Positions 27,001-30,000 of a stretch of 64,000 nucleotides of DNA are shown piece by piece; within the stretch, counting starts at the first letter, position 1; each line of letters starts with the position of its first letter. Location: NCBI RefSeq assembly GCF_013122565.1, contig NZ_CP053258.1; one strand, given 5' to 3'. The position numbers are program-made. The DNA comes from Escherichia coli (GTDB taxonomy: Bacteria > Pseudomonadota > Gammaproteobacteria > Enterobacterales > Enterobacteriaceae).

Positions 27001-30000
27001 ATATTACGGCTTACGCACATAATGACACGATGCTGGTTAATAATGGGCAAAGCGTGAAGGCTGGGCAAAAAATCGCCACTATGGGGAGCACTGATGCGGC
27101 ATCTGTTCGCCTGCATTTCCAGATTCGTTACCGTGCAACGGCAATTGATCCGCTACGTTACTTGCCGCCTCAGGGCAGCAAGCCAAAATGCTGATGGCGA
27201 ATTAATCAGCAGTCAGCAGCGCGGCACTTGCTAAGGAGAGCGTAAGGTTTATAATGCCTTACGCATCTCGAAGCGGGCGTAGTTCAATGGTAGAACGAGA
27301 GCTTCCCAAGCTCTATACGAGGGTTCGATTCCCTTCGCCCGCTCCAATTTATCTTCACCTCATCAACCTGCCATTTTTGTTGTATCTGATTTTCTATATT
27401 ATCTTAATTCAATCGGTTCAGACTTTTCGCAATCGCCGTAATACTTCCCCATTTTTTTGTAAATAAAAAGCGATTACGCAATGCAATCCTTTTGTAACAA
27501 TCCAGGTAAAATACCTTATTTTCAAGTTGTTAAATAAGTGGTTATCTACGCTTTTAACAAACGATTGATGGAATATTTTATGAAAGGGAAATCTGCATTA
27601 ACTCTTCTGCTCGCTGGTATATTTTCATGCGGCACCTGCCAGGCGACAGGGGCAGAAGTGACGAGTGAATCTGTATTTAACATTCTTAATTCCACGGGGG
27701 CAGCAACAGATAAAAGTTATTTATCGTTAAATCCAGATAAGTATCCTAATTATCGTCTTCTGATTCACTCAGCCAAATTAAAAAATGAAATAAAGAGCCA
27801 CTATTCCAAAGACGAAATTCAAGGATTGTTAACATTAACAGAAAATACACGAAAGTTAACGTTGACGGAGAAACCCTGGGGAACATTTATTCTTGCTTCT
27901 ACTTTCGAAGATGACAAAACAGCGGCAGAAACCCACTATGATGCTGTCTGGCTGAGGGATAGTTTATGGGGCTATATGGCCTTAGTATCAGATCAGGGAA
28001 ATAGTGTAGCCGCAAAAAAGGTTCTGCTCACCCTGTGGGATTATATGTCTACGCCCGACCAGATTAAGCGGATGCAGGACGTCATTAGCAACCCAAAACG
28101 ACTGGATGGAATTCCTGGGCAAATGAATGCTGTGCATATCCGATTTGACAGCAACTCCCCCGTGATGGCGGATGTGCAGGAAGAAGGCAAGCCGCAGCTG
28201 TGGAACCATAAACAAAATGATGCGTTAGGTCTTTATCTTGATCTCCTTATACAAGCAATCGACACTGGTACTATTAACGCTGAAGATTGGCAAAAAGGTG
28301 ACCGATTAAAATCGGTTGCGCTGCTGATTGCTTATCTGGATAAAGCCAATTTCTATGTTATGGAAGATTCCGGAGCGTGGGAAGAAGATGCCAGATTAAA
28401 CACATCTTCCGTTGCACTGGTGACCTCTGGACTGGAACGTTTGTCGAACTTACTCTCGAAGAAAGACTCTGTTTTTGTCTCTGATTTACTACGTGAAGCT
28501 AAAGCCAATGAACTGGATGAACCTCTTTCAACAACGAGGTTGAACCACCTCATAGATAAAGGTTATGAAAGAATAACGTTACAGCTTGATTTAGGGGGAG
28601 AATCCCCAGGTTATCTGGAAAAAGATAAACATTACAGAGAAGCCGATGCGGCTTTACTTAATGTTATTTATCCTGCAAATCTTTCAAAGATAAACACCAG
28701 AAGAAAAGAGCAAGTTCTAAAAATAGTTAAAAAACTAGCAGGTCCGTATGGTATAAAAAGATACGAGAAGGATAATTATCAGTCGGCAAATTTTTGGTTC
28801 AATGATATTAAAACCGATACCGATCAAAATTCGCATGCAAAAAGAGAAAAGAGCTTCATTCCATCAACAGAAGCAGAATGGTTTTTTGACTCATGGTATG
28901 CAAAATCAGCAGCAATTGTTTATAAAGAATCAAGAAAAGAAGAGTATTTGAATGACTCAGTGCAATTTATGAATAGATCATTGGCCCAAATAACAGGCGA
29001 GAATATGATTGGTGCAAATGGCAGGAGTGTACCTGAAATGGCACTTCCCGAAAGCTATAACTATATCCACAAGTCGGGAACTTTGCATGAAGCGCCAAGC
29101 CCTATCATTCCGCTAAATTGGTCGAAAGCATCAATGACTCTCATGTTGAAAGAGATGTCCAACCTTATCAATGATGAGGGAAATAAATAGTTTTCATAAT
29201 GAGGCGGTCCTGGATTAAAAGGACCGCTCAAAGAGAAATCGAAAGGGGAGGTAAAAGTGATCAATAAATTACTGTTAGCTTACCTGATAGGTCTGGTTGT
29301 GACATCGACTTTAATATTTATCTTCTCGGAAGAAAAAGTAACATATCGGTTGTTTGCTGCAATAATTACAGGTTTAACCTGGCCGCTTAGTCTCATTCCT
29401 TCCATTATAAGTCTCATGATTCGTAAATCCGACTAACAAGAAAATTATATGATCGATTAAGAAAAATAGAATCGAACAGGAGAATAAAATATATGCGGGG
29501 AGTAACAAAACACTCGCAGTGCGTTAATGAAGAACTAACAAATATGATTTGTATTGAAAATAGTTACCAAACAAGTGTTATAAGAAATACGAGGTGTGTT
29601 TAAGTAAAGCATATCAACAGTTACAAATCTGTATATGGACAGGATGACGTACAAGTGTAAGTGGCTGATAGCTATTCGCTCATAACAAAATCATTATTTT
29701 ATAAATAGGAATCATCACTTTTTAATCATGTTTTTATAGCAATTTTATGGAGAATGAGAATATGGAATAAGGAGATGAAACATGATTGAAGAAGGGCTGT
29801 TACTTCCAATGAATGTTTTGCTTCAAGGACAGAAGTTAACCCTACTGGACCCTGAAATGTGGTTCTTACGGGGAAATGAAAACAAGGATGTAACCCTTGT
29901 TATTACGATCGGTAATAACCATCAAAAATTAATGGTAGTGGAAGATATATTACTGCTCATTGACCGAAGCCAAATTGAGGTAACGGCAGGGAAAGTAATT

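Follow-up and report, generated by a model that had tools for sequence, protein, structure and literature searches.

An intact pkgA gene at the edge of the ETT2 island of Escherichia coli encodes a predicted Sec-exported glycoside hydrolase of family GH15

A stretch of 64,000 nucleotides from the Escherichia coli contig NZ_CP053258.1 (hereafter the window) carries, between a glycine tRNA gene and the operons of ETT2 (type III secretion system 2 of E. coli), an intact copy of pkgA, the full-length form of ygeQ. On the evidence laid out below, we regard it as probable that the PkgA protein is an inverting exo-α-glucoside hydrolase of glycoside hydrolase family 15 (GH15), that it is exported by the Sec route and not injected by a type III secretion system (T3SS), and that its gene is a long-standing accessory of ETT2-type islands. 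The literature has described the gene itself, its homology to GH15 enzymes and to phosphorylase kinase (PhK), and its location within a T3SS island since 2003, and current RefSeq annotation includes them; the new points are the Sec signal together with relatives that lack T3SS genes nearby, the sugar-related neighbors of some of the homologues, and the recurrent linkage to ETT2-type genes and to a small open reading frame.

A carbohydrate-active enzyme had struck the initial annotation of this DNA as unexpected cargo for a T3SS island, a thought that is not new, since a possible effector role of PkgA in ETT2 has already been raised in print (PMC3977695; PMC2808357). In a 2014 review of ETT2, ECs3736 (K-12 B2863) appears under the name pkgA with the description 'Phosphorylase kinase and glucoamylase', and the review relays from Pallen (2003) the speculation that its product is an effector directed against host glycogen metabolism (PMC3977695); the genome paper of enteroaggregative E. 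coli (EAEC) 042 says the same of EC042_3075, likewise citing Pallen (2003) (PMC2808357). No study of PkgA by biochemical or genetic means turned up in our literature search.

The reading frame from which this work started (27538-29190, plus strand; 550 residues from a GTG in a mechanical listing of open reading frames) begins 192 nucleotides past the tRNA-Gly(CCC) gene and is a real gene, as judged by its homologues (matches with E values of 0 to 1e-100), a low ratio of nonsynonymous to synonymous substitution rates (dN/dS) and a RefSeq match. Its true start is almost certainly the ATG at 27580 rather than the GTG at 27538, because RefSeq and all close homologues begin there with MKGK or MKRK, and because only then does the hydrophobic segment become N-terminal; from the 550-residue start, the signal would be internal. 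The refined coding sequence (27580-29190, plus strand) specifies 536 residues, a form deposited as RefSeq WP_123057311.1 in E. coli EC42405. With a value of 0.03 when compared to another E. coli allele and of 0.08 when compared to that of Escherichia albertii, dN/dS points to purifying selection on PkgA.

The same gene is known as ECs3736-ECs3737 in O157 Sakai, as EC042_3075 in EAEC 042, and as b2863 plus b2862 in K-12; the locus order glyU, pkgA, a ydcX-like reading frame and eivF is shared, with nucleotide identities of 98-99% to many E. coli. While the reading frame of the window allele is intact, the K-12 and O157:H7 copies are disrupted. In K-12 MG1655, ygeQ (b2863) is annotated as a 264-residue coding sequence followed by the ygeP pseudogene and IS2H. 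It is colinear with residues 1-264 of PkgA; a stop replaces G265, three codons before E268, and the remainder of the gene corresponds to the ygeP pseudogene, cut by IS2H. The statement in the initial annotation that K-12 ygeQ is a pseudogene is correct insofar as ygeQ is a truncated remnant (stop at codon 265), but it is ygeP that carries the pseudogene label. O157:H7 strain 380-94 has lost 5 bp within the HIRFD codons, and its copy is flagged as frameshifted; in other strains insertions of IS1 or IS4, or a 78-bp deletion, are found in pkgA. Strain VE-V11-M, on the other hand, has an intact pkgA, yet eivF to eivI are deleted there and sctQ and sctU are frameshifted. A pkgA reading frame is present in 3985 of 5426 complete E. 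coli genomes, at 80% or more of its length in 2968 of them, and it is always chromosomal; a tblastn search of the PLSDB plasmids yielded no true plasmid-borne homologue, the matches being chromosomes filed as plasmids.

GH15 fold and catalytic residues

The GH15 assignment, which had initially been based on a short motif, is borne out by the profile search and the structure prediction that had been proposed as checks. The sole Pfam match of PkgA is the GH15 domain PF00723, a significant but weak match (i-E 4.5e-5, 23 bits) that runs from residue 94 to 416 and covers model positions 16-309 of 427, i.e., the N-terminal three quarters only; among 40 relatives, the same domain is found at E≤1e-3 in 22 and at E≤0.1 in 34. 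When PkgA was compared by phmmer to all chains in the PDB, only the β and α regulatory subunits of PhK were returned, and these marginally. As single-sequence searches of the PDB and of NCBIfam were too weak, family profiles were used instead. The family profile matched PhK-α at 7.6e-7, and a profile enriched with distant relatives matched PhK-α at 8.6e-17, PhK-β at 6.8e-7, and the solved GH15 enzymes isomaltose glucohydrolase (5Z3A/D, about 1e-6), glucodextranase (5.6e-5) and a bacterial glucoamylase (5.7e-5). With 40 homologues as input, AlphaFold2 gave a confident model that reached a predicted local distance difference test (pLDDT) score of 90.3 and a predicted template modeling (pTM) score of 0.90, and the Foldseek comparison of this model is consistent with the GH15 fold. 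The assignment of PkgA as a single-domain (α/α)6-barrel protein of GH15 (clan GH-L) is hence sound. Judged by sequence, it falls into a rare and distinct GH15 subfamily whose nearest solved relatives are the N-terminal D1 domains of PhK-α and PhK-β.

The DSGAWEED motif on which the family call had been based is present at residues 263-270 (28366-28389; this and all following coordinates within pkgA are on the plus strand), but the interval originally given for it, 28377-28388, comprises 12 nucleotides inside the motif and is out of frame. The motif contains the predicted general acid E268 (28381-28383), while the predicted general base E491 (29050-29052) is part of an LPESY motif (29044-29058). 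In hhalign, the family profile aligned with PhK-α/β D1 over 333 columns with a probability of 97.5% and an E value of 8.7e-12, thereby placing E268 opposite E185 and E491 opposite E371 (LPELY) of a PhK-α sequence that was verified as 100% identical to chain M of 8JFK. E185 and E371 are the catalytic glutamates of PhK-α D1 (PMC10978961).

The corresponding alignment with the glucoamylase of Aspergillus niger, the sequence of which was confirmed to be 100% identical to 3EQA, is weak (E 0.0097): its register is right for regions 1-4, the C-terminus is misaligned, and the global mode gave nonsense. In the hhalign register, W124-L-R126-D127 of PkgA (27949-27960) is the equivalent of the sugar-binding motif W52-T-R54-D55, W208...Q212-x-D214 corresponds to W120...Q124-x-D126, W267-E268-E269 to W178-E179-E180, and R394-Y-x-x-D398-x-Y400-...-W406 (28759-28797) to the GH15 region R305-Y-x-x-D309-x-Y311-...-W317. 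Since direct alignment onto the A. niger base E400 failed at the misaligned C-terminus, the base of PkgA was mapped through PhK-α and through the motif of the isomaltose glucohydrolase 5Z3A; E491 is thus tied to a characterized enzyme by motif and by way of PhK rather than by a confident alignment of individual residues. In the alignment with 5Z3A, E268, the first Glu of WEE, meets the first Glu of WWEE, chain residue 198, which would be native E178 if the chain has a 20-residue tag, an offset that we infer; the 5Z3C entry designated 'E178A' has precisely this residue altered, and its profile score drops accordingly. The wild-type chain of 5Z3A and the 'E335A' chain differ in DLPEQV, and from this difference an LPE-x-[VY] base motif common to PkgA, PhK-α and 5Z3A emerges.

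In all 113 full-length relatives (39-98% identity to PkgA), E268, E269, E491, R126, R394, D398 and W514 are invariant, and so is the R394-Y-x-x-D398-x-Y400-...-W406 region; the presence of the acid and base residues, which had been named as a check of the family call, is thus established in the alignment. By this comparison, PkgA keeps a predicted complete GH15 catalytic set, with E268 as the acid, E491 as the base, and the Arg, Asp and Trp residues that would hold the sugar in the -1 subsite. Outside the canonical GH15 set, H186, R188, H210, K211, E341, R353, R422 and E431 are invariant in the 113 relatives as well (K211 in 112 of 113), and H210 and E431 are common to PkgA, PhK-α and PhK-β. 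These additional charged residues might set the substrate specificity of the subfamily.

With the D1 domains of PhK-α and PhK-β (PDB 8JFK), PkgA has a whole series of motifs in common: WVRD, W-x-H-x-Q-x-DA, G-x-WE, DAxLL, RF/Y-L/x-x-D-x-Y, ECEW/TEAEW, LPE-x-Y and P-x-x-W. The proteins nevertheless differ in their overall organization, the PhK subunits being cytosolic eukaryotic proteins of approximately 1100-1200 residues with four more domains, whereas PkgA is a single-domain bacterial protein of 536 residues with a predicted export signal and an extra N-terminal subdomain of approximately 90 residues relative to PhK D1. Moreover, PhK-β is devoid of the base Glu (VPKYY) that PkgA retains. The isomaltose glucohydrolase (PDB 5Z3A-F, 7C24-27) resembles PkgA in being a single catalytic barrel without a β-sandwich N-domain and in having the same motifs around the two catalytic residues, WWEE for the acid E178 and LPEQV for the base E335. 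It is, however, only 15% identical to PkgA, shorter, and lacks the N-terminal subdomain and the insertions of PkgA; at 15% identity, isomaltose as a substrate cannot be transferred to PkgA. Similarity to the classical GH15 enzymes (A. niger 3EQA/1GAH, Clostridium thermosaccharolyticum 1LF6 and Arthrobacter 1ULV) is marginal, with the hhalign match to A. niger described above and none in phmmer, and PkgA differs from them by the absence of a starch-binding domain and of a β-sandwich N-domain and by its extra invariant basic residues.

Predicted export signal and linkage to ETT2-type islands

Read from M1 (27580), the N-terminus of PkgA is MKGKSALTLLLAGIFSC(17)GTCQA(22), followed by TGAEV; its n-region is basic, and the hydrophobic core spans 11 residues. 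A regular expression and a hydrophobicity heuristic designate residues 1-22 (27580-27645) as a Sec-type signal peptide. Within it, IFSC is a candidate lipobox (Cys17 at 27628-27630) that fits a PROSITE-style pattern, but not the strict pattern [LVI][ASTVI][GAS]C; a cut by signal peptidase I between CQA and the following Thr, past Ala22, is equally possible. The K-12 product is annotated as 'putative lipoprotein YgeQ'. By the same heuristic, a hydrophobic, signal-like N-terminus is present in 78 of the 113 full-length relatives, 27 of which also have a lipobox; the 35 without such an N-terminus belong mostly to Gram-positive or termite-gut lineages, or seem to have mis-called starts. Export of PkgA, which the initial annotation had termed secreted, is hence supported in the sense of a Sec-exported and possibly lipid-anchored protein, by sequence rules only. 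The position of a possible lipoprotein gene upstream of a regulator-secretin pair also led us to consider PkgA as a replacement of the pilotin InvH; this is unlikely, as pilotins are small, and none of our results speaks for it.

The subfamily to which PkgA belongs is rare: of 1.84 billion representative proteins, 855 match it at E≤1e-3 and only 223 do so at E≤1e-30. A scan of approximately 100,000 species genomes yielded 31 loci, none of them from Enterobacterales, probably due to the choice of species representatives, and the linkage to T3SS genes was consequently taken from look-ups of the exact proteins. ETT2-type T3SS genes were found within 10 kb of a homologue at four loci (L012, L047, L048 and L050), the homologues being 49-66% identical to PkgA and each locus having its own arrangement of glycosidase and T3SS genes (identities are to the proteins of the window throughout). 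At L012, the homologue (66%) is accompanied by prgH (33%), eprI (72%), prgK (58%), orgA, and ygeK-like (51%), pbl-like SLT (49%) and hilA/ygeH-like (32%) genes, with the partition genes sopA-sopB and an effector-like SopD/pentapeptide gene further along. At L047, in an assembly labeled E. coli, the homologue (49%) lies immediately 3' of prgK-orgA-orgB; at L048 (54%), it is separated from hilA-like, SLT and ygeK-like (73%) genes by 7.4 kb that include IS66; and at L050 (50%), its distance to hilA-like, SLT and prg-org genes is 1.3 kb, and a TraI relaxase is encoded on the same contig. A fifth homologue (L052, 54%) is accompanied by the gene of an EivF-like regulator (45%) and by that of a YgeG-like chaperone. 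No T3SS apparatus genes are present within the flanks of the homologues of Yersinia enterocolitica (L002-L004, 60%) and of L051 (46%).

This pattern indicates that pkgA did not come to lie in the E. coli ETT2 island by chance, but has traveled with ETT2-type islands while these diverged far and were rearranged several times. Part of the linkage is accounted for by the islands' descent from a common ancestor, and the loci may not be independent instances of it.

As to the genetic context of these loci, L012 is a 24-kb, plasmid-like Enterobacterales contig (Logan DRR526056) whose sopA/sopB genes have 78% nucleotide identity to the IncF type; PLSDB contains nothing above 71% nucleotide identity to its T3SS. 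The L050 contig (Logan ERR13910451), with the relaxase gene beside the homologue, probably derives from a conjugative plasmid. L047 is a 4-kb contig of GCA_033038075.1; taking its E. coli label as given, its gene would be a second, divergent pkgA paralogue in this species. At the Y. enterocolitica loci, genes for proteins of 848 and 326/332 residues are always found divergently upstream of the homologue, near an invasin-like gene, and neither product has a Pfam or NCBIfam match.

Directly downstream of pkgA, between it and eivF, the window contains a plus-strand reading frame (29257-29436) for a strongly hydrophobic protein of 59 residues (ECs3735/ydcX-like) that is preceded by a good Shine-Dalgarno sequence, GGGGAGG. 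It belongs by its RefSeq name to the GhoT/OrtT family, with PF10753 recognized in orthologues, and contains the motif GLTWPLSL. Reading frames of this family, 55-59 residues long and with the same motif, lie directly 3' of the homologue in the window, in E. albertii (L013), at L050 and at L052, which suggests that pkgA and the GhoT/OrtT-like gene form a conserved pair. We saw no antitoxin-like partner of the 59-residue reading frame.

Beyond E. albertii and Y. enterocolitica, the subfamily has members in Commensalibacter, Bifidobacterium and Bdellovibrionales/Oligoflexia, and in metagenome-assembled genomes from termite guts that are affiliated with Elusimicrobiota, Planctomycetota, Clostridiales XIII, Synergistaceae, Mycoplasmataceae and Saccharibacteria. 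A second tier consists of metagenome proteins of approximately 435 residues, labeled 'phosphorylase kinase alpha/beta subunit' by the Joint Genome Institute, and of eukaryotic GH15-like proteins. In the available flanks of the non-enterobacterial relatives, there is neither a conserved operon nor a T3SS gene. At L031, a GH13-like gene, genes for a sugar ABC binding protein, a MalG-like permease and a MalK/UgpC-like ATPase, and, 36 bp downstream, the homologue follow each other; the junction between the ATPase gene and the homologue is the same at L032. A gene for a GPH sucrose-type symporter adjoins the homologue at three loci (L020, L022, L029), an α-glucan phosphorylase gene lies 3.5 kb from it at L035, and in Commensalibacter a GH32 gene is the convergent neighbor. 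Clusters of neighbors with 'histidine kinase' and 'ABC ATPase' labels were set aside, as they reflect mostly generic paralogy (amino-acid and ABC-2 transporters at L035 and L038); the neighborhood evidence retained comprises the sugar ABC operon of L031/L032 and the GPH symporters. Collectively, the neighbors of these distant relatives point to a real role in the breakdown of α-glucosides or oligosaccharides.

Proposed role and competing explanations

In the mechanism that we propose, PkgA would be exported by Sec via a lipoprotein or an ordinary signal peptide and would act in the periplasm, at the outer membrane, or outside the cell. There, E268 would protonate the glycosidic oxygen and E491 would activate water, so that α-linked glucose would be released in an inverting, exo-type cleavage from a small sugar or from the end of a glucan. 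Not injected itself, the enzyme would serve as an accessory of ETT2-type islands, often paired with the small GhoT/OrtT-like membrane protein.

Several observations weigh against this proposal. The main caution on assuming an activity of PkgA comes from PhK-α D1, which has kept both glutamates and yet showed no activity on maltose, isomaltose and glycogen (PMC10978961). No NCBIfam model scores above its cut-off, and with 14.8 bits versus a cut-off of 820.7, PkgA falls outside TIGR01577, the GH15 equivalog model for oligosaccharide amylases. The invariant basic residues H186, R188, H210, K211, R353 and R422 are absent from canonical glucoamylases, and they could reflect a substrate other than a plain α-glucoside. 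The lipobox is atypical, with Phe at position -2. No sugar transporter or regulator gene is found beside pkgA in E. coli, a purely nutritional role leaves the repeated linkage to T3SS islands unexplained, and an enzyme assay for any member of the subfamily was not found in our literature search.

A more far-reaching view, which we consider rather unlikely, holds that PkgA and its GhoT/OrtT-like companion form a conserved functional module of ETT2-type islands in which an active, Sec-exported glycosidase is needed for a host-associated role. If it were true, the substrate of PkgA would reveal a cryptic or ancestral activity of the 'glucoamylase-like' domain of PhK-α, whose active site is intact, because PkgA is a bacterial sister of PhK-α/β D1. 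The activity of this domain is a long-standing puzzle, and the subfamily described here is its closest bacterial relative; the intact window allele offers a convenient single-domain protein for expression and assay. The recurrent co-occurrence of pkgA with ETT2-type genes despite its Sec signal also bears on the purpose of ETT2.

PkgA could also act, as an exported glycosidase, on a glycan of the bacterial envelope or of the host surface that is relevant to the T3SS in a non-nutritional manner, e.g., on α-glucosyl decorations of lipopolysaccharide or O-antigen that affect the exposure of the needle. The repeated linkage to ETT2-type islands in varied arrangements, the predicted export signal and the conserved small membrane-protein partner would all fit such a function, as would the location of pkgA just upstream of eivF-eivG; in SPI-1 (pathogenicity island 1 of Salmonella), it is the lipoprotein gene invH that occupies the corresponding position. 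We judge this explanation, and with it the example, to be quite improbable: direct evidence for it is lacking, in other phyla, the relatives are found without a neighboring T3SS, some of them also without any signal peptide and beside sugar importers, and GH15 enzymes characterized so far act, to our knowledge, on soluble α-glucosides.

With a still small probability, PkgA might be catalytically silent and serve as a carbohydrate-binding or scaffolding protein that has kept fold and residues in the way PhK-α/β D1 has. Its sequence is nearer to PhK D1 than to that of any characterized GH15 enzyme, and the presence of both glutamates in PhK-α D1 without detectable activity (PMC10978961) sets a precedent. 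However, both glutamates and all residues of the -1 subsite are invariant across phyla in the PkgA subfamily, whereas PhK-β has already lost its base; sugar transporter genes and a GH13-like gene adjoin some of the homologues; and PkgA is a stand-alone, single-domain protein without partner domains.

The weakest of the explanations, and a very improbable one, is the published speculation that PkgA is injected as an ETT2 effector to act on host glycogen metabolism (PMC3977695; PMC2808357): the gene is encoded inside ETT2, homologues of 49-66% identity lie near ETT2-type T3SS genes at four more loci (with the regulator and chaperone homologues of L052 adding a fifth), and PkgA is homologous to regulatory subunits of a kinase of the host glycogen pathway, yet a classical hydrophobic, Sec-type N-terminus is present in every T3SS-linked homologue, no T3SS genes were found in the available flanks of the relatives from Commensalibacter, Bifidobacterium, Elusimicrobiota, Bdellovibrionales and others, some relatives are part of sugar-uptake operons, and pkgA is intact where the apparatus is deleted (VE-V11-M). 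Among the arguments against direct type III secretion, the Sec signal weighs most; the relatives without T3SS genes in the available flanks and the intact gene beside a broken apparatus are further ones. Known T3SS substrates are devoid of a Sec-type N-terminus.

The locus around pkgA

As initially annotated, pkgA lies between a tRNA gene and the T3SS operons. The tRNA gene is glyU, at which the ETT2 island is anchored in the chromosome (tRNA-Gly(CCC), 27273-27346, plus strand; identified by ARAGORN and by Rfam RF00005 with 71.6 bits, and annotated as glyU in K-12). An AT-rich spacer or leader (27347-27579, plus strand) separates it from pkgA. In ETT2-negative E. coli genomes that retain the tRNA gene, the match to this region is restricted to 27200-27488 of the window; the homology therefore ends near 27488, upstream of pkgA, which places the boundary of the island there and makes pkgA part of it. 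The G+C content of the reading frame (40.5%) is like that of the remaining low-G+C block from 27.5 to 56 kb, with flanks of approximately 52%. A second copy of the 3' end of glyU (23 nucleotides, with up to 3 mismatches allowed) was not found in the entire 64 kb, and the island is thus without a recognizable att-type direct repeat. The promoter scan returned sites no more numerous than in shuffled sequences and none in the leader (27347-27579); its sole strong promoter-like site, at 27228-27255, lies upstream of the tRNA gene.

Fourteen nucleotides past the stop codon of pkgA, a G+C-rich hairpin with an 8-bp stem and no U tract (29204-29227, plus strand) is formed by GCGGTCCT...AGGACCGC; folding of a 69-nucleotide stretch gave -19.7 kcal/mol (z -3.5), and a terminator was not called. 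This hairpin may stabilize the transcript or serve as a partial termination element before the small reading frame.

The first ETT2 genes for the T3SS, both on the plus strand, are eivF (29782-30531), encoding an InvF-like AraC regulator, and eivG/sctC (30528-32231), encoding the secretin. The gene order is colinear with that of E. coli EC42405 at 98.8% nucleotide identity, where xdhCBA, actS, tRNA-Gly, the GH15 protein (536 residues), a 'GhoT/OrtT family toxin', an HTH regulator, sctC and more T3SS genes follow each other. The ETT2 island of the window (approximately 29.8-54.8 kb) looks complete by the length of its reading frames, its gene set including eivF, G, E, A, C, I and J, epaO-S, eprH-K, orgA/B, ygeK, pbl, ygeH and ygeG. 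Many E. coli have instead an eivF-eivI deletion, insertion sequences or frameshifts in ETT2; the strain from which the window derives could hence possess a functional system. Two dips in G+C content, at 10-11 kb and 20-22 kb (0.42-0.45, versus approximately 0.52 in the flanks), interrupt the left part of the window, which is core-like elsewhere.

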